A stretch of DNA of 11,835 bases. Source: a virus. The stretch is taken from the IMG/VR virus record IMGVR_UViG_3300045988_078946; one strand, 5' to 3'. The notes under the pieces were generated by a model, which saw nothing but the letters and a program-made list of their open reading frames with translations, was not told the DNA's origin and ran no database searches. The position numbers were made by a program, and so were the translations under genes. Below are positions 1 through 11,835 of the stretch, one piece after another (the stretch's first letter is position 1; the number at the start of each line of letters is the position of its first letter).

Positions 1-268
1 CATAACACACTTTGGCACGCTTTTTGCTCTGTGCCGCATTTACCATTCTTTAACATATTTAACACTTCATAACACACTTTGGCACGCTTTTTGCTCTGTG
101 CCGCATTTACCATTCTTTAACATATTTAACACTTCATAACACACTTTGGCACGCTTTTTGCTCTGTGCCGCATTTACCATTCTTTAACATATTTAACACT
201 TCATAACACACTTTGGCACGCTTTTTGCTCTGTGCCGCATTTACCATTCTTTAACACATTTAACACAC
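1..268. repeat. Tandem array of four 67-bp direct repeats inside the left ITR
   Basis: The unit cataacacactttggcacgctttttgctctgtgccgcatttaccattctttaacatatttaacactt starts at 1, 68, 135 and 202. Copies 1-3 are identical. Copy 4 has a T>C change at 257 and diverges at 267-268. Each unit contains a short inverted repeat GGCAC-N12-GTGCC (14-18 and 31-35 in copy 1) and phased TAACA motifs. Confidence 0.95.
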
Positions 269-300
269 CGTTAACACTGTTAAACTTTCATAAAAATAAT

Positions 301-378
301 GTTTCACGTGGAACGTTGGTAAATAAATGTTTCACGTGGAACAAAGGGGCAAACAATGAAAACTGTTTCACGTGGAAC
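301..378. promoter_or_regulatory. Cluster of three identical near-palindromic boxes GTTTCACGTGGAAC (candidate operator or origin-protein binding sites)
   Basis: Exact copies at 301-314, 329-342 and 365-378 (centre spacing 28 and 36 bp). Each is preceded by an A-rich tract and (A/C)TG. The core is CACGTG, and the arms are palindromic except for one position (G instead of A) that is the same in all three copies. Confidence 0.7.
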
Positions 379-433
379 AAACAAGTGTTAACAACAGTTA
401 ATTTATTTCTTTAAGACTTTTTAACGAAAATAA

Positions 434-465
434 TTTGGTGGTTTCGCAAAAACGTTGTATCTTTG
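434..465 (+). promoter_or_regulatory. Inward-facing left-arm (early) promoter, Bacteroidota type
   Basis: TTTG at 434-437, a 20-bp spacer, then TATCTTTG at 458-465 (matches the TAnnTTTG -7 element). It lies about 50 nt upstream of the first + strand gene and is repeated in the right ITR and mid-genome with the same architecture. Confidence 0.65.
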
Positions 466-514
466 CACCGTGTTTAAGAAACATATAAGTTTAACAAATT
501 AAATTAGGTAAATT

Positions 515-682
515 ATGAATGAGAATTTTAATGAAACTGTTTTCAACTGTATTACTAGTGTTAACGCTCTTATGACTTCAAACGAAGTCGCAAAAGACGA
601 TAAGGCGGTTATTAAGTTGAACCGCTTTAAGAAGTGGTTGAATGAGTTTGCGGCTGCAAACGGTATGAACGAAGTTAAGTAA
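515..682 (+). CDS. Hypothetical small early protein, 55 aa (below the 60-aa ORF track cut-off)
   Basis: Manual translation from ATG 515 to TAA 680-682 gives MNENFNETVFNCITSVNALMTSNEVAKDDKAVIKLNRFKKWLNEFAAANGMNEVK. It is the first ORF downstream of the ITR promoter and is co-oriented with the operon. The antisense ORFs 499..696 and 578..889 look spurious (F/L/C-rich). Confidence 0.5.
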   Translation: MNENFNETVFNCITSVNALMTSNEVAKDDKAVIKLNRFKKWLNEFAAANGMNEVK

Positions 683-733: not shown

Positions 734-1099
734 ATGGCTAAAGGTTTTAGTTTTGCTAGTACTTTTAATAAGACTAGTTTCGGTATTGATACGACCGATT
801 TTCCGTTTGTAAAGTTGACCGATATTTACAACAGTGAGAAAGACGGTGGCGGTGATGTGGTACACCCGATTAACGGTATGTACGTTCACAAATCGCAGTT
901 GGGAGATTCACCTGTAATAATTGACGCAGAAAACAAGCGTTTAGTGAACTTACCACAGTTCACAGGTGACACGGTGCGAGAGATTCTTGCTAATAGTGAA
1001 GCGGTGGACACTATCAAAGCAAACAAAGTTGGTTATACGATTTATGAATATGAATCGCACGCCAAAAAATGTTACGGTATTACCTTTGTAGATAAGTAG
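734..1099 (+). CDS. Hypothetical early protein, 121 aa; possibly a phi29 p5-like ssDNA-binding protein
   Basis: Clean ORF in the early operon, followed by a terminator. Its size and position just upstream of the TP/DNAP pair, plus a weak remembered resemblance of its C-terminal half to phi29 p5 (124 aa), suggest an SSB. This is not verifiable here. Confidence 0.6.
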   Translation: MAKGFSFASTFNKTSFGIDTTDFPFVKLTDIYNSEKDGGGDVVHPINGMYVHKSQLGDSPVIIDAENKRLVNLPQFTGDTVREILANSEAVDTIKANKVGYTIYEYESHAKKCYGITFVDK

Positions 1100-1194: not shown

Positions 1195-1866
1195 ATGGCA
1201 AAGTTAAATCCGATAGGGTTTTCAAAAAGAACGTTTGCAGCAACGGCAAAGATACACGTTGATAAGCAAATATTAGACGCAATAGAATCCCGTGGCTATT
1301 TACGCAAAGAAATCGCCCGTGTGTTTCAACAGGCGAACCGACGCATACAGAATGTGGAAAAATCGGGTTTTGTTTCGCCTGCCGTTGTTGCGTTAAATAA
1401 AGGTGATATTAAAGGATTCACAAAGTTTTCAATGAAACACGATTGGAACGATTTAAAAATTGAATATTCCAAAGCGGTTTCTTTTTTGCAACAACCTACA
1501 TCAACGGCAATTGGTACACGTGAGTATTCAAACCATTTAAAGAAGTCTTACAACTTAGACGATAAAGAATTTAAGTTGATGCAAGACAAATTAATGGGTA
1601 AAATTGCAAGTGTTTCCGATGAAAGATTTTTGGAACAATATTTAATGCAGTACAAAGATTTCACGGGCGAACTAGAACAGGAATCACGGGACGTTAGCGA
1701 CCAAATCGAAGATGATGCGGTTAAAATTGAAAACGCTTTAGATGATGCAATAGAACAAATAGCAAAAGACCCAAATTCAGAGGCTTACGTTAACGGTGTT
1801 AACCATTTCAAAACTGACGAACCTTTGAAAAAGATATTGCAAGAATTTGAAAAATTCGGTTTATAA
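1195..1866 (+). CDS. Candidate terminal protein (TP) for protein-primed replication, 223 aa
   Basis: It lies immediately upstream of the protein-primed DNA polymerase and is translationally coupled to it (TAATG overlap at 1864-1868), as with phi29 genes 3 and 2. It has a basic N-terminal region (ARVFQQANRRIQNVEKSGFV, compare phi29 TP ARLVKNTKAKIARTKKKYGV from memory) and an acidic C-terminal half. The product call is an inference. Confidence 0.6.
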   Translation: MAKLNPIGFSKRTFAATAKIHVDKQILDAIESRGYLRKEIARVFQQANRRIQNVEKSGFVSPAVVALNKGDIKGFTKFSMKHDWNDLKIEYSKAVSFLQQPTSTAIGTREYSNHLKKSYNLDDKEFKLMQDKLMGKIASVSDERFLEQYLMQYKDFTGELEQESRDVSDQIEDDAVKIENALDDAIEQIAKDPNSEAYVNGVNHFKTDEPLKKILQEFEKFGL

Positions 1867-4073
1867 TGAAGAAAATACCCTTTGAACTACATACAGAAGT
1901 TTATACGCCAAAAGATATTGCAAAGGTTTTATCTTTGGCGGTGAACGATAAGAATTTTACAGGAAACAATAAGGGCGAAAAGTTCTTAAACGTTCCTGTA
2001 TCTTTCGATATTGAAACTACATCATTTTACCGTGATGAAGACGGGGAAACATACAGTTACGAACGCTATATGAAATTAGGTGGAAAAGAAACCAAAATGG
2101 AAAAGTGTTCTTTAATGTATGTTTGGCAATTTGGAATAAACGGTTTTTGCATAATTGGGCGTACGTGGGACGAATTTTTGCAAATGTTATCCGAAATAGT
2201 GGATATATTGGAACTTTGCCCAAAGAAACGTATTATTATTTACGTTCACAATTTGGCTTATGAGTTCCAATTTTTCCGTGAGTTGTTGGAATGGGAAAAA
2301 GTTTTCTCTATTGATTTACGCAAACCAATTTACGGAATAACGAAAACAGGTTTAGAGTTCCGATGCAGTTACTTATTATCGGGTTATTCTTTGGCGAAAT
2401 TAGGCGAACAATTACACACATACAAATGTGAAAAGTTAGTTGGCGATTTGGATTATAGTTTGTTACGTCACAGTAAAACCCCGTTGTCACAAAAAGAAAT
2501 TGGTTACTGTCTGAATGATATAAAAGTGGTGATGTGTTACATACAGGAACTATTGGAACGTTACAAAGGAATAACCCGTTTGCCGATTACAAAGACGGGT
2601 TTTGTACGCAAATATTGCCGTTCTGTATGCTTTAAAACAACTGACGAAACAGGCAAAACGATTCCAAACTTTAAATATATTGATAAGATTCATAACTTAA
2701 ATATAACAGGTATGGAAGAATTTGCAATGTTACAACGGGCGTTTTCAGGTGGCTTTACGCACGCCAACGCAAAATACACCGATGAAGTAATTGAGAATGT
2801 AGATAGTTACGATTTTACTAGCAGTTACCCTTATGTTATGGTTTCAGAAAAGTTTCCAATGAGTACGGGCGTAATTGTACCGATAAAGTCAATGAAACAA
2901 TTTGAGTTTATGACTAGCAAATTTTGTTGTGTTTTTGATGTGGAGATAACAAACATATTTGCAAAATCAGAAAACGAAAATCCAATATCGGTTAGTAAAT
3001 GTTTCGTGAAAGAAAACGTTTCCGAGAATAACGGGCGATTGGTTTGCGCAAAGAAAATATGTATGACGATTACCGAAATAGATTACAAAGTGTTTTCACA
3101 GTTTTACACGTGGGAACAAATAAGAATCGGGCGAATGATTTGTTACAGAAAAGAATATTTGCCAACTGAGTTTGTAGAATCTATTTTGCACCTGTATGAG
3201 ATGAAAACAAAACTAAAGGGTGTAAAGGGTAAAGAAGTGGAGTATTTGAATAGCAAAGAAATGCTTAATAGTTGTTACGGTATGTGTGTTACAAATCCGT
3301 TGCGTGATGAAATTTTGTGCGATGGCGAAACGTGGGACGTTGAACACCTTACAGGCGAAAAACAATTAGAAATGCTTAATAAATACAATGATAGTAAAAA
3401 CCGCTTTTTGTTTTACCCGTGGGGTATTTATGTTACCGCCTATGCACGAAGAAACCTGTTTACGGGTATTTCTGAATGTGGGGACGATTACATATATAGT
3501 GATACCGATTCCGTTAAAATTATGAATGGTAATGCACACAAAGACTATTTCAAAGCCTACAACGATTTAGCGCAACAAAAATTACGTGCCGCCTGTAAGT
3601 TTCACAAAATACCCTTTGAAAAGGTTGAACCCGTCACAATAAAGGGAATCTCAAAACCGTTGGGTGTTTGGGATTACGAGGGACGTTACGTCAGGTTTAA
3701 AACTTTAGGCGCAAAACGCTATATGGTGGAAGAAGAAAACGCCCTAACAGTAAACGGCAAAGATTATAATTATTCAATGACCGTTTCGGGCGTTAACAAA
3801 AAATCCGCTATCCCTTATATGTTAGAAACGTTTGGAGAAAGTGGAATCTTTGACGCATTTACAAATTATCTAGATATTCCACCATCGGCAACAGGTAAGA
3901 ATATTCATACATATATTGATTATAAACAAACGGGAACAATAAAAGACTATAGGGGCAACGTTTCAAGTTACGATACGACAACGGGGGTACACTTAGAACC
4001 AACTGGGTACACTTTAAGTCTTTCAGTTCTTTATATAAATTATTTAATGGGAATCAGATTAAAGAAAGAATAA
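1866..4073 (+). CDS. Protein-primed family B DNA polymerase (phi29 gp2-like), 735 aa
   Basis: All canonical motifs are readable. ExoI is FDIETTS, ExoII is VHNLAYEFQF and ExoIII is YCLNDIKVV. Motif A is DFTSSYPYVM, motif B is KEMLNSCYGMCV, motif C is IYSDTDSVK and the KxY motif is GAKRYMV. The genome has ITRs consistent with protein priming. Confidence 0.95.
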   Translation: MKKIPFELHTEVYTPKDIAKVLSLAVNDKNFTGNNKGEKFLNVPVSFDIETTSFYRDEDGETYSYERYMKLGGKETKMEKCSLMYVWQFGINGFCIIGRTWDEFLQMLSEIVDILELCPKKRIIIYVHNLAYEFQFFRELLEWEKVFSIDLRKPIYGITKTGLEFRCSYLLSGYSLAKLGEQLHTYKCEKLVGDLDYSLLRHSKTPLSQKEIGYCLNDIKVVMCYIQELLERYKGITRLPITKTGFVRKYCRSVCFKTTDETGKTIPNFKYIDKIHNLNITGMEEFAMLQRAFSGGFTHANAKYTDEVIENVDSYDFTSSYPYVMVSEKFPMSTGVIVPIKSMKQFEFMTSKFCCVFDVEITNIFAKSENENPISVSKCFVKENVSENNGRLVCAKKICMTITEIDYKVFSQFYTWEQIRIGRMICYRKEYLPTEFVESILHLYEMKTKLKGVKGKEVEYLNSKEMLNSCYGMCVTNPLRDEILCDGETWDVEHLTGEKQLEMLNKYNDSKNRFLFYPWGIYVTAYARRNLFTGISECGDDYIYSDTDSVKIMNGNAHKDYFKAYNDLAQQKLRAACKFHKIPFEKVEPVTIKGISKPLGVWDYEGRYVRFKTLGAKRYMVEEENALTVNGKDYNYSMTVSGVNKKSAIPYMLETFGESGIFDAFTNYLDIPPSATGKNIHTYIDYKQTGTIKDYRGNVSSYDTTTGVHLEPTGYTLSLSVLYINYLMGIRLKKE

Positions 4074-5223: not shown

Positions 5224-5272
5224 ACGGGGGTTAAAAATGTTTCACGTGAAACACTTTTCCCCCGTTTTATTT
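5224..5272 (+). terminator. Rho-independent terminator of the left (early) operon; its stem contains the CACGTG palindrome
   Basis: ACGGGGG (5224-5230) pairs with CCCCCGT (5259-5265). The inner stem is formed by AAAATGTTTCAC/GTGAAACACTTTT. It is followed by TTTTATTT and sits 10 nt after the ATPase stop. Confidence 0.75.
5238..5253. promoter_or_regulatory. Perfect 16-bp palindrome TGTTTCACGTGAAACA (candidate high-affinity operator for the same factor as the ITR boxes)
   Basis: The sequence is its own reverse complement. It differs from the ITR boxes only at the position that breaks their symmetry (A here, G there). It lies 16 bp upstream of the -33 TTTG of the late promoter. Confidence 0.7.
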
Positions 5273-5301
5273 GGTGATACCAAATAATTTTCCTATCTTT
5301 G
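5270..5301 (+). promoter_or_regulatory. Late (structural operon) promoter, Bacteroidota type
   Basis: TTTG at 5270-5273, a 20-bp spacer, then TATCTTTG at 5294-5301. It shares the TTTGGTG...TATCTTTGCA architecture and spacer length with the two ITR promoters. Confidence 0.65.
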
Positions 5302-5528: not shown

Positions 5529-6595
5529 TGGAGAAAGAAAACTTATATAATAGGTATCAAACAGAAGTTAAAAACAAAGATTCTGCATTATTCACATTTA
5601 TGCAACGTGTTCTTTGTATGACTTCAAAGATGTTTGAGTACACGGGTACACCCGAAACAATGCCCCCTGTAGAACTTGAAAAGATTCTGCAAACATCGGG
5701 TAACGTTGGTATCGCAAAAGTAAACGGGGGACTGTATGCTTTACAGGGTACACGGGGCGGTGAATGTGATGCGTATTATCACGGCAAAGATTACGTGGTT
5801 GCGAACCCGTGGTTAAATTTGAACAAAACGTTTAAAATCGATTCCGATATTGTCATTATCAACAATACACCGTTTGCAGATTCACTTTTGCCAATAATCG
5901 GCAAATATGGTGTACTTTACACCGATGCGACAATAACACTTAATTTGGCTAGCATTTTAACACGTATCACTATGTTAATTTCTGCTAGTGACGATAAAAC
6001 CAAACAAAGCGCAGAATCTTTCTTGCAGAAGATTTTAAACGGTGATTTCTCAGTAATCGGTGAAAATGCCTTTTTCAAAGGTGTTAACTTACAAACACCA
6101 CCGACACAGGGAAACCAACAAATAGGGCAATTAATTGAACTTTTGCAGTACTATAAGGCTTCAATGTTCAACGATTTAGGTTTGAATGCAAACTATAATA
6201 TGAAACGTGAACGATTGAACACGCAAGAGGTTTCAATGAATATAGACGCTTTAATGCCGTTCGTTGATTCAATGTTAACAGAACGTGTCGAGGGTGTGAA
6301 ACGTGTTAACGAAATGTTTGGTACGGATATTACGGTAACGTTGGGGTCTAGTTGGAAGATTGAGCACGAAAATTATTTGTCGTTACTCAAAGCCACAGAA
6401 GAGGGACACGAACACACCGAAACGGAAGACGTTGACTCAGTAAAGGAAAACGAAACAGAAGAAACGCAAGAAACAGAAGAAACAGAAACAGAAACAGAAG
6501 AAACAGAAGAAACAGAAGAAACGGAAACAGAAACAGAAGAAAATGAAGAAACAGAAGAAACAGAAGAAAAAGAAGAGAAAGAAGATGAAAATTAA
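5528..6595 (+). CDS. Portal / head-tail connector protein, phi29 gp10-like, 355 aa, with an acidic E/T-repeat C-terminal tail
   Basis: [30 protein letters not shown] matches phi29 gp10 [50 protein letters not shown] matches [36 protein letters not shown] matches CEKINELYGLNVKVKF (phi29 sequence from memory). Confidence 0.9.
   Translation: [355 protein letters not shown]
6446..6592. repeat. Purine-rich coding microsatellite (GAAACA / GAAGAAACA units) at the 3' end of the portal gene
   Basis: gaaacagaagaaacgcaagaaacagaagaaacagaaacagaaacagaagaaacagaagaaacagaagaaacggaaacagaaacagaagaaaatgaagaaacagaagaaacagaagaaaaagaagagaaagaagatgaaaat. It translates as [47 protein letters not shown]. Confidence 0.9.
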
Positions 6596-10448: not shown

Positions 10449-10697
10449 TTATTTTTTATTAGTAAATTCGTAGGCTAGATTTTTGCTATAAATAAAATCC
10501 AAAGCACGGTTTTTCTTTGCCGTTTCTTCATCAAGTTTGCACGAAATAGTTTTTATTACTAAGGTTTGCGCCTTTAGTGTATCAATAACAGAATTTAATA
10601 ACATACCGTTTGTACCTGTTGTGTTTTCTGCTATGTACTGCAAATTTACTGTTGAAACTTTAATTGACTTCAACAAAATTTTTATTGCTTTATCCAT
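10449..10697 (-). CDS. Hypothetical protein, 82 aa, predicted mostly helical, no TM segment
   Basis: The ORF starts 2 nt after the endolysin stop and is the last gene before the bidirectional terminator. I recognise no motif. Confidence 0.6.
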   Translation of the reverse strand: MDKAIKILLKSIKVSTVNLQYIAENTTGTNGMLLNSVIDTLKAQTLVIKTISCKLDEETAKKNRALDFIYSKNLAYEFTNKK

Positions 10698-10699
10698 AA

Positions 10700-11125
10700 C
10701 TATTTCTTTTCCAAATTCATTATAATTTGGTTACGGGGTTTACCGTTACGTGGACAAACTGAAACGTGAAACCAAAATGAGTTCGTGAAACCTTTGCGGT
10801 GTTCTTTAATAAGTTGGTCGAAACCGCCTGTTTCTCTCAGAACCTTTTCTAAAGATTCCATATCAGCACAAACCAAATCAGCGGCTAAACCTTTTTGGTG
10901 TTGACTGTTAACAACACCCCCAACTGCTTTATTTAACATCGGGCAACGATACCCACTACTAACTAAGATAGGTTTACCCAACTTTGCACGAATGCCGTCT
11001 AAATAATCAGCCAAACGATTCAAGTTGTCAACTATTTCAAACGTTGGTGTATTATCAATGCCCAAACGTTTTGCGGTTGCTGAGTTGATGAACTCGGACA
11101 ATTTAAAATACTTAATTCTTTTCAT
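10700..11125 (-). CDS. Endolysin, Peptidase_M15_3 (zinc D-Ala-D-Ala carboxypeptidase-like / L-Ala-D-Glu peptidase fold), 141 aa
   Basis: Family signature FKLSEFINSATAKRLGIDNTP...SSGYRCPMLNKAVGGVVNSQHQKGLAADL with the H-x6-D zinc ligands, plus a distal His in FWFHVS. There is no signal peptide or TM segment. Confidence 0.88.
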   Translation of the reverse strand: MKRIKYFKLSEFINSATAKRLGIDNTPTFEIVDNLNRLADYLDGIRAKLGKPILVSSGYRCPMLNKAVGGVVNSQHQKGLAADLVCADMESLEKVLRETGGFDQLIKEHRKGFTNSFWFHVSVCPRNGKPRNQIIMNLEKK

Positions 11126-11130
11126 ATCAC

Positions 11131-11334
11131 TTATTTATTTTCTTTTGGTGTAATAATAAACCACTTGCGAGAATCTTTGTGCGTTGGAAAACGCCCCTTT
11201 ACAGTTATTGAACAATCGCCCTGTAAGTAATCAATCTTATTATTAAAGAACTCGCTTACTTTGTCAGAACGTACCATAAAAACCGTAACTTTGTCGTCTT
11301 GTTTTAATGTGATTCTAAAATATGAATGTTCCAT
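11131..11334 (-). CDS. Hypothetical protein, 67 aa, first gene of the right-arm operon
   Basis: It is the first ORF downstream of the right ITR promoter (leader about 30 nt) and lies 5 nt upstream of the endolysin gene. I recognise no motif. Confidence 0.6.
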   Translation of the reverse strand: MEHSYFRITLKQDDKVTVFMVRSDKVSEFFNNKIDYLQGDCSITVKGRFPTHKDSRKWFIITPKENK

Positions 11335-11370
11335 AATCTTTATAATTTAATTGTTTCTTAATTTCTGCTG

Positions 11371-11402
11371 CAAAGATATAACGTTTTTGCGAAACCACCA
11401 AA
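11371..11402 (-). promoter_or_regulatory. Inward-facing right-arm promoter (ITR copy of the left early promoter)
   Basis: On the - strand: TTTG (11399-11402), a 20-bp spacer, then TATCTTTG (11371-11378). It differs from the left copy only at the base just 5' of the -7 element (11379). Confidence 0.65.
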
Positions 11403-11457
11403 TTATTTTCGTTAAAAAGTCTTAAAGAAATAAATTAACTGTTGTTAACACTTGTTT

Positions 11458-11535
11458 GTTCCACGTGAAACAGTTTTCATTGTTTGCCCCTTTGTTCCAC
11501 GTGAAACATTTATTTACCAACGTTCCACGTGAAAC
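11458..11535. promoter_or_regulatory. Mirror cluster of three GTTCCACGTGAAAC boxes in the right ITR
   Basis: Exact copies at 11458-11471, 11494-11507 and 11522-11535, which are the reverse complements of the left ITR boxes. Confidence 0.7.
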
Positions 11536-11567
11536 ATTATTTTTATGAAAGTTTAACAGTGTTAACG

Positions 11568-11835
11568 GTGTGTTAAATGTGTTAAAGAATGGTAAATGCG
11601 GCACAGAGCAAAAAGCGTGCCAAAGTGTGTTATGAAGTGTTAAATATGTTAAAGAATGGTAAATGCGGCACAGAGCAAAAAGCGTGCCAAAGTGTGTTAT
11701 GAAGTGTTAAATATGTTAAAGAATGGTAAATGCGGCACAGAGCAAAAAGCGTGCCAAAGTGTGTTATGAAGTGTTAAATATGTTAAAGAATGGTAAATGC
11801 GGCACAGAGCAAAAAGCGTGCCAAAGTGTGTTATG
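11568..11835. repeat. Tandem array of four 67-bp direct repeats inside the right ITR (mirror of 1-268)
   Basis: Reverse complement of the left array, read directly in lines 11581-11835. Confidence 0.95.

Follow-up and report, generated by a model that had tools for sequence, protein, structure and literature searches.

What is the array of repeats that stands at both ends of IMGVR_UViG_3300045988_078946, and what might it be for? The window, that is, the whole stretch of 11,835 nucleotides that was analysed, begins and ends with four tandem copies of a 67-bp unit that form the outer part of a long inverted terminal repeat (ITR). A first-pass annotation saw in these copies, and in the TAACA motifs they carry, an iteron-like platform at the genome terminus for a multimerising DNA-binding protein. 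The explanation favoured here, with a probability of about 0.55, is that the array is a recently amplified subterminal module whose core resembles a sigma-54 promoter and is read by the host, and that it lies in a truncated contig of a phi29-like phage. Labels such as L008, L057 and L099 denote public IMG/VR or metagenome contigs that were compared with the window, and coordinates are collected in Table 1.

The conserved element of the repeated unit

Four 67-bp repeats are present at both contig ends, as had been described; Tandem Repeats Finder gives a period of 67 with 4.0 copies and 99% matches at 1-266 and 11570-11835. Units 1-3 are identical and unit 4 deviates at 256 and 267-268, and only one unit counts as independent evidence for the motifs of the array, the others being copies. 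TAACA starts at 3, 51, 60, 70, 118, 127, 137, 185, 194, 204, 252, 261 and 272, with gaps that cycle through 48, 9 and 10. The triplets spaced 9-10 bp apart, the additional motif at 3 and the denser TTAACAC run with its TTAAAC are all found where the first-pass annotation had placed them. TAACA occurs often in this genome as a whole (105 matches, 57.5 expected), and in the array it is about 13 times as dense as in the background.

Conservation was judged on an alignment of 49 distinct complete ends of related contigs. The invariant blocks of the ITR in this alignment are GTACACAAGGCAC, ATTTAACATTTCCCAAC, TTTAAC, TAACACACTTTGGCACG-TTTTTG, GTTAAAC-TTTCATAAAA and ATGTTTCACGTGGAAC, and the columns of the core are at least 95% conserved. 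Judged in this way, the invariant element of the unit is the 16-mer TTTGGCACG(C/G)TTTTTG (TTTGGCACGNTTTTTG) and not TAACA or the inverted repeat. TTTAACA-type motifs precede each core at about -10, -20 and -29. The TAAC motifs are conserved in the relatives as a class, with 3-9 per end and successive gaps of 9-11 bp (103 cases), 21 bp (47) and 48 bp (35); the comparison of related ITRs that had been proposed for the TAACA phasing therefore gives motifs about 10 and 21 bp apart that are conserved in spacing and variable in number.

Does this spacing amount to a helical lattice? The distal TTAACAC cluster is a variable-number mini-repeat of 9-11 bp in the relatives, with length steps of about 10 bp, and the distance from the core to the operator-like palindromes is quantised (68, 78, 88, 98, 108 and 119 bp), which fits the gain and loss of this mini-repeat. 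Selection for helical phase may lie behind the quantisation, but the mutational process would produce it unaided. Across the array the coherence of the TAACA lattice is 0.97 at 9.57 bp and 0.14 at 10.5 bp; the former value is trivial, since 9.57 is 67/7 and is expected of any 67-bp array. The T-tract periodicity of the array also peaks near 9-9.5 bp and not at 10.5. Successive TAACA triplets face different sides of relaxed B-DNA, and the same-face phasing claimed over 270 bp holds inside each triplet only.

The inverted repeat can be considered in the same manner. GGCAC stands at 14, 81, 148 and 215 and GTGCC at 31, 98, 165 and 232, so that the N12 spacing reported earlier is present in each unit, but the GTGCC arm was found within 30 nt of just 51 of 162 cores in the relatives, and GGCAC never changes to compensate. 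It could be suggested that the unit acts through structure, either as a GGCAC...GTGCC hairpin in displaced single-stranded DNA or as a structured RNA such as the packaging RNA (pRNA), whose gene lies near the left end in phi29. The presence of the inverted repeat in every unit would fit this, as would a distant clade that has an inverted repeat with 9-bp arms, TTTGGCACG-N14-CGTGCCAAA. In a single-strand fold the unit hairpin reaches -5 kcal/mol (z = -1.25), which is no better than shuffles, and an Rfam scan of the window gave no pRNA and only two sub-threshold chance matches. Relatives differ in their numbers of TTAACAC motifs and operators, as would hardly be expected of a folded RNA. The structural reading of the unit is disfavoured and has become very improbable.

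The array is subterminal

A polymerase-based search of IMG/VR retrieved 80 contigs with a DNA polymerase 90-99% identical to that of the window, and 46 of these carry a terminal module, at 82 ends in all. The relatives terminate in 5'-AAAGGTACAC...ATTTAACATTTCCCAAC, and the contig ends of the clade follow the pattern 5'-AAAGGTACACAAGGCAC-N4-ATTTAACATTTCCCAAC-N5-TTTAAC-N5-TAACACACTTTGGCACG.... In nine contigs (L008, L056, L057, L061, L065, L074, L093, L105 and L125) an Illumina adapter, ...CTCTTCCGATCT, is fused directly to AAAGGTAC, and such a fusion arises only at a fixed physical DNA end. A sequence search of the window found neither AAAGGTACAC... nor ATTTAACATTTCCCAAC. Positions 202-300 of the window align at 96% to nt 56-152 of L072, from which it follows that window position 1 corresponds to about nt 54 and that about 53 nt are absent at each end. 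As read from these comparisons, the array is subterminal and not at the genome terminus, where it had first been placed, and the window is a contig whose ends lack the terminal module of the clade.

The terminal bases can be read in the same way. The phi29 end, AAAGTA, supplies the base reiteration for sliding-back initiation (PMC11476376). The AAAGG... of the relatives, which begin with AAAGGTAC or AAATATGC adjoining adapter sequence, offers a similar terminal reiteration, whereas the window start, CATAACAC, offers none, and this failure is best explained by truncation of the contig.

The long ITR had been regarded as unusual for a phage of this type. ITR lengths of about 150-870 bp are normal in the lineage, and the ITRs of the phages Astrid and Phanie measure 84 bp and 171 bp, respectively. 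The ITR of the clade would be laid out as a terminal origin, the sigma-54-like core, TTAAC mini-repeats, palindromic operators and then a Bacteroidota promoter. The true terminus 5'-AAAGGTAC... is now given for a clade that is very common in human gut data. Contigs flagged as complete on the basis of their ITRs may still be without real ends, and a mis-annotation of this kind is likely corrected here.

Adapter contamination is useful in that it marks the physical genome terminus. Illumina leftovers occur at the ends of the nine contigs named above and of L077, and Nextera leftovers at the contig ends of L042, L115 and L129. In the first ~90 nt of both arms of L096 and L124 the sequence extends outward beyond the AAAGGTACGC terminus into other ITR-internal sequence (...GCTATGTGTTAA|AAAGGTACGC...), which could stem from a chimeric assembly or from molecules joined end to end.

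Copy number and origin of the array

In the ITR of the relatives the 67-bp unit has its counterpart at nt ~54-120, running from TAACACACTTTGGCAC... to ...TTTAACAC. Four copies are an exception; a single core is found in 80 of the 82 complete ends, and two cores are found in both ends of L057. The L057 duplication has a period of 68 bp, and a 1-bp indel and two substitutions separate its copies. The junction of this duplication, TTTAACACATC|GTTAACACAC, differs from that of the window, TTTAACACTT|CATAACACAC, and uses GTTAACAC where the window uses TTTAACAC. Because of the diverged copies and the different breakpoints, the duplication in L057 is, on sequence grounds, an independent and certainly real event.

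How could the array have arisen? In 28 of 49 distinct single-copy ends, the TTTAAC in front of the core is followed by another TTTAAC 66-68 nt further downstream, and the period of the array equals the distance between the TTTAACA(C) direct repeats of single-copy relatives (67 bp), so that slippage or unequal recombination fits. Slipped-strand mispairing or unequal recombination between these 7-8-nt repeats would give a 67-bp duplication with the observed junction. The amplification would be specific to this lineage, and recent, since copies 1-3 are identical. The array may then have spread to both ends by the usual homogenisation of ITRs, or the arms may merely look identical through assembler collapse. 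The arms of L049 differ by one ~10-bp TTAACAC repeat and those of L040 by 1 nt, so homogenisation of the ITRs is not always complete. In the left arm of L010 (1-330) a ~70-bp operator module, consisting of two palindromes and a spacer, is tandemly duplicated, and other ITR modules have therefore also been amplified in the clade.

A different possibility is that the array, or its fourfold copy number, is a product of assembly, from a genome with one or two units and an assembler that circled a loop in its graph. The perfectly periodic run of the array is 255 nt long, and short-read assembly cannot fix the copy number across such a run. If the assembly was made from a short-read graph, both ITR arms would derive from one collapsed path, in which case the equal truncation and equal copy number at the two ends are not independent observations; truncation at the same base at both ends is what such a path would give. 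The length itself could speculatively be decomposed as 255 = 54 + 3 x 67, a value that would agree with a loop in a k=55 graph being followed three times. An exact search of IMG/VR and the JGI metagenomes found the start of the unit and the unit junction in no other public contig. What stands against an artefact is that the junction ...CATATTTAACACTT|CATAACACAC... is impossible from a single-copy genome at the usual k-mer sizes, the shared direct repeat being only 8 nt, and that real, diverged duplications of the module exist in L057 and throughout the sister clades described below. An assembly product is thus unlikely. We infer that at least two copies were present in the sample, and that four is the assembler's figure.

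The core and sigma-54

What reads the core? The sequence TGGCACGCTTTTTGC agrees at all twelve specified positions with TGGCACnnTTnTTGC, which is the consensus of the E. coli RpoN holoenzyme (PMC8743547). The window has eight exact matches to TGGCAC-N5-TTGC, which amount to one independent unit; 0.59 would be expected even if one mismatch were permitted. Cores always face inward, and TGGCACG is nearly invariant across them. Bacteroidota have sigma-54 with typical -24/-12 promoters (PMC9723704).

The same motif precedes genes in contigs that are unrelated to the phage and appear, from their sequence, to be of Bacteroidota type. In L120, an unrelated contig of 12.6 kb, all 23 copies of TGGCA(C/T)G-N4-TTG are on the coding strand and none on the other, and most are close after a stop codon and 31-43 nt before the next ATG. 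Tandem pairs of the motif stand before genes in L117, L122 and L134. Among the genome matches listed for the core motif, 26 of 80 are Bacteroidota, and an open reading frame (ORF) starts 15-70 nt downstream of the motif in 12 of these 26 and in 11 of the 54 others. No homologue of any window protein is encoded by the motif-bearing unrelated contigs, so that a host factor is a more likely reader than a phage protein. L120 (Ga0247608_10006287) is an element of 36% GC in which the motif stands before almost every small gene; it appears by eye to hold a tRNA-like sequence, and it had no match in the phage collection (tblastn) or in Pfam.

Several observations weigh against the sigma-54 explanation and the amplification that goes with it. 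Sigma-54 promoters normally conserve GC at -12 better than any other part, and the C at -12 is present in 97 of 162 cores, with T instead in 61 (TTTGT); TTGT and TTGA also dominate the promoter-like copies in L120. No gene lies at promoter distance, the unit being without an ATG and the first gene starting at 515. Sigma-54 requires an enhancer-binding ATPase (PMC9723704), and none was identified. An inverted copy in L109 keeps TTTGGCACGC and the T-run but is without TTGC. At the right end of the L107 clade two cores are kept though the stop codon of the tail gene adjoins the second core; this end has no inward gene, so an inward promoter there would have nothing to express. The second of these cores is, moreover, outside the identical part of the ITR. 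Finally, one assembly is all that supports the amplification, since the search of public contigs gave the unit junction nowhere else.

With these points in mind, the favoured explanation can be set out as follows. The 16-mer would be a binding site for a host factor, most likely the sigma-54 RNA polymerase holoenzyme, for which it offers a perfect inward-facing -24/-12 sequence. Each unit would then be one subterminal promoter or holoenzyme-binding module, and with the amplification each end would have about four modules where there had been one. The TTAAC motifs, which are phased and T-rich, could serve as upstream bending sites or as sites for accessory proteins. The bound factor may either drive early inward transcription or aid protein-primed initiation at the nearby end, and these two roles are not necessarily alternatives. 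Adenovirus offers an example, in that its protein-primed initiation is stimulated by host transcription factors at the ITR. A bolder version, which we regard as doubtful, is that host sigma-54 sites fixed 64 nt from each protein-capped end are used by a widespread clade of human-gut phi29-like phages as an auxiliary origin or early-entry element, with a dose that is tuned by amplification between 1 and 6 sites, 4 in the window. The reader could in that case be the holoenzyme or sigma-54 by itself, since sigma-54 is able to bind DNA alone.

If the core does recruit sigma-54, this would be an unusual small phage that uses sigma-54, and does so at its genome ends, and it would be a direct bacterial parallel to the host-factor-assisted protein-primed replication of adenovirus (NFI, Oct-1). 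The general kind of element, a set of repeated sites with a regulatory or origin-auxiliary role within a protein-primed replicon's ITR, is known. A literature search found no description of the core element, its fixed distance from the end or its 1-6-fold copy range, and nothing relevant on sigma-54 promoters in phages or on tandem repeats in the ITRs of protein-primed phages.

The TGT-N10-ACA-type palindromes at 300-379 are no more than a lead toward enhancer-binding-protein sites. The operator-like palindrome, GTTTCACGTG(G/A)AAC, occurs three times per ITR arm with zero matches expected by chance. There are 2-5 copies in the relatives. Several copies fit TGT-N10-ACA, and a perfect copy at 5239-5252 lies 17 nt upstream of the late-operon promoter.

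The core as an iteron and a possible role in replication

A scan for two cores 35-65 nt apart gave 25 viral and 19 metagenome contigs. A sister clade that begins with AAAGGTACGCTACTGACCC, and whose polymerase and terminal protein are 67% and ~55% identical to those of the window, natively has 2-6 diverged copies of ACTTTGGCACG(C/G)TTTTTG with periods of 58, 48, 43 and 27 bp. As read from the sequences, its units are mostly paired with a TTTAACA ~20 nt upstream of the core. L099 has an 870-nt ITR (1-870 and its mirror) with six diverged cores at 57, 115, 163, 213, 261 and 309. A third clade begins with AAATATGCACAACG and has two copies of the core 69-73 bp apart. Over these three clades, with polymerases about 65-67% identical to that of the window, the position of the first core is nearly constant, its start falling 63-64 nt from the terminus in 43 of 44 ends. 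The number of cores per end ranges from one to six, with diverged spacers in the sister clades, which is repetition of the iteron type. The core would thus be a family-wide iteron with the look of a sigma-54 promoter. The first-pass annotation is supported in seeing a repeated platform of protein-binding type in the ITR of a phi29-like, protein-primed phage, but it is the core and not TAACA that forms the conserved unit. The natural copy-number series of 1, 2, 4 and 6 cores is a ready set of variants for probing the function of the module.

The cores at the L107 right end and the fixed distance of 63-64 nt suggest a function linked to the DNA end, such as replication initiation or genome entry. 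With the core fixed in this way and present at a right end without an inward gene, a replication-linked role of the array is possible. The array could in particular be an auxiliary replication-origin platform, on which a phage-encoded protein multimerises at the cores or TAACA motifs and helps to open the protein-capped end, so that extra units add sites; the candidate binders are the 55-aa or 121-aa early protein, or the terminal protein/DNA polymerase. In three clades the first core stays equally far from the end, whereas it stands at varying distances from the genes, and at the right end of the L107 clade cores are kept outside the identical part of the ITR. The conserved TAAC gaps of 9-11 bp and 21 bp, and the length steps of ~10 bp, also agree with such a platform. 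Of the genes that had been proposed to encode the binder, 515..682 and 734..1099 (the 55-aa and 121-aa proteins) are conserved in three clades, wherever the motifs are, and lie just upstream of the terminal protein and polymerase genes, which is the position of genes 5 and 6 in phi29. The other two, 10449..10697 and 11131..11334, show no conservation in sister clades that keep the motifs.

The p6-type complex that had been suggested finds no counterpart among the small ORFs, since searches of Pfam, PHROGs and PDB profiles gave no homology to p6 or p5; for the 55-aa and 121-aa proteins they gave nothing, remote homology being still possible. Homologues of the 121-aa protein among the matches listed are 84-98% identical only, and the structure model of this protein is unusable (AlphaFold predicted local distance difference test score, pLDDT, 54.6). 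The core periods of 67, 58, 48, 43 and 27 bp hold no helical phase. The extended motif also stands upstream of individual genes in contigs without these proteins and in Bacteroidales chromosomes, which points to a host reader. A platform for a phage-encoded protein is for these reasons a tentative alternative.

It could also be proposed that the array is a signal recognised in packaging. Its sole support is the position near both ends; no data tie the module to the gp16 ATPase, the copy number ranges freely from 1 to 6 between lineages, and packaging of the phi29 type recognises the terminal protein and not a DNA sequence. A packaging signal is therefore hardly credible.

Comparison with known systems

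The sigma-54-like core can be set beside promoters and beside other terminal replication elements. Like sigma-54 (RpoN) -24/-12 promoters, the core equals the consensus in a single, inward orientation, and the extended motif stands before genes in other Bacteroidota-type contigs. It differs from them in its place, within an ITR and 64 nt from a presumably protein-capped end, and in its tandem repetition; its -12 C is often T, and there is neither a gene at the usual distance nor an identified enhancer-binding protein. The auxiliary origin of adenovirus has NFI and Oct-1 sites in the ITR, 25-50 nt from the end. Both are protein-primed replicons with ITRs, and both have apparent sites for host transcription factors at a fixed short distance from the terminal origin at both ends. 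The phage system would differ in being bacterial, in having its site ~64 nt from the end and in having multiplied it in some lineages.

In phi29, p6 reads bendability with a 24-bp period and no fixed sequence, and the ITR is 6 bp long. The p6 complex and the array share a subterminal position at both ends, proposed multimeric binding, short-period DNA signals and overlap with early-promoter control, but the array has an invariant 16-mer and no p6 homologue was found in the searches described above. The Astrid (Salmonella) and Phanie (Acinetobacter) phages resemble the window in genome plan, size and long ITRs, whereas their ITR sequences are unrelated and are without the 67-bp array, the TAACA lattice and the TTTGGCACG core. 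The Astrid ITR (L091 1-84) holds short GGGC/GGTA-type repeats; the Phanie ITR is L092 1-171. Replicon iterons and the tandem blocks of poxvirus ITRs are direct repeats near ends whose copy number varies by slippage or recombination. The array resembles them in being made of direct repeats of a short conserved sequence that adjoins the terminus but is not at it; by analogy, it would differ from them in its protein-primed end, as against a hairpin, and in a core without a known cognate initiator.

Genome, host and neighbouring features

The proteins of the window matched DNA_pol_B_2, Podovirus_Gp16, Phage_connector and Phi29_MCP in searches of Pfam and PHROGs, and they include a type-B protein-primed DNA polymerase, a gp16-type packaging ATPase, a phi29-type connector and a capsid protein. 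By major capsid protein the nearest isolates are the Astrithrvirus-type phages Astrid, astrithr, Phanie and DU_PP_III, at 56-59% identity (58% to Astrid and Phanie). The candidate terminal-protein ORF is 26-30% identical to the ORF before the polymerase gene in Astrid and Phanie. No nucleotide-level match for the whole window was found among deposited phage genomes by megablast. Judged by its genes, the window comes from a phi29-like, protein-primed podovirus of an Astrithrvirus-related lineage and holds almost all of its genome. An index of public assemblies has 3250 blocks with the 55-aa early protein, and human-gut and Hadza samples are among the sources of the contigs that were read. In human gut metagenomes the phage is very common.

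The host is probably a member of the Bacteroidota. The consensus for Bacteroidota sigma-A promoters, TTTG-N18-22-TAnnTTTG (PMC9723704), has 4 matches in the window against 1.03 expected. Three of these sit exactly before the three operons and the fourth, at 11260-11293, is inside a gene; promoters of this type before all three operons make such a host likely. A scan of 1-1200 for sigma-70-type promoters and terminators gave nothing above shuffles. The ITR terminates right at the first of the Bacteroidota-type promoters. At the other end, the endolysin in the right-arm operon means that this end does not consist purely of early DNA-binding genes.

Table 1. Features of the window, in nucleotide positions of the 11,835-nt stretch.
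Feature	Position	Strand	Remarks
Tandem array, 4 x 67 bp, putative amplified subterminal ITR module	1..268	+	Units 1-67, 68-134, 135-201, 202-268
Mirror copy of the array, right ITR arm	11568..11835	-	Tandem Repeats Finder, inverted-repeat comparison
ITR left arm as assembled	1..467	+	One mismatch at 457; outer end truncated
ITR right arm	11369..11835	-	Pairs with 1..467, one mismatch at 457
Core 16-mer TTTGGCACGCTTTTTG	11..26, 78-93, 145-160, 212-227	+	Conserved across relatives
TGGCAC-N5-TTGC, sigma-54 -24/-12-type	13-27, 80-94, 147-161, 214-228	+, inward	Motif scan; PMC8743547 consensus
Four mirrored core 16-mers, right arm	11609..11825	-	Motif scan
TGGCAC-N5-TTGC, right arm	11608-11622, 11675-11689, 11742-11756, 11809-11823	-	Motif scan
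GGCAC-N12-GTGCC inverted repeat, one per unit	14..35	+	Left arm within core; right arm not conserved
TTTAACA / TTTAACAC / ATAACAC triplet	49..75	+	Upstream of next core; recurs at +67 and +134
Distal cluster of three TTAACAC and TTAAAC	250..285	+	TTAACAC at 251, 260, 271; TTAAAC at 280
Operator-like palindromes GTTTCACGTGGAAC	301-314, 329-342, 365-378	+	Mirrored at 11458-11535
Bacteroidota-type promoter TTTG-N20-TATCTTTG	434-465	+	Inner ITR edge, before left early operon
Small early gene, 55 aa	515-682	+	Conserved in all three clades sharing ITR motifs
Small early gene, 121 aa	734-1099	+	Conserved in all three clades sharing ITR motifs
Putative terminal protein gene	1195-1866	+	Precedes polymerase gene; conserved across clades
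Protein-primed type-B DNA polymerase gene	1866-4073	+	DNA_pol_B_2 match
Bacteroidota-type promoter, third	5270-5301	+	Before late genes
M15-family peptidase endolysin ORF, right-arm operon	10700-11125	-	Profile searches
Bacteroidota-type promoter twin	11371-11402	-	Mirrors 434-465; before right operon

Another repeat in the window is found at 6439-6590, where a GAAACAGAA-type sequence codes for a Glu/Thr-rich tail at the C-terminus of the connector and extends over the start of the following ORF (6543). A length of ~6.0-6.2 kb is common among the public contigs of the phage, and it is possible that assemblies break at this connector-tail repeat.

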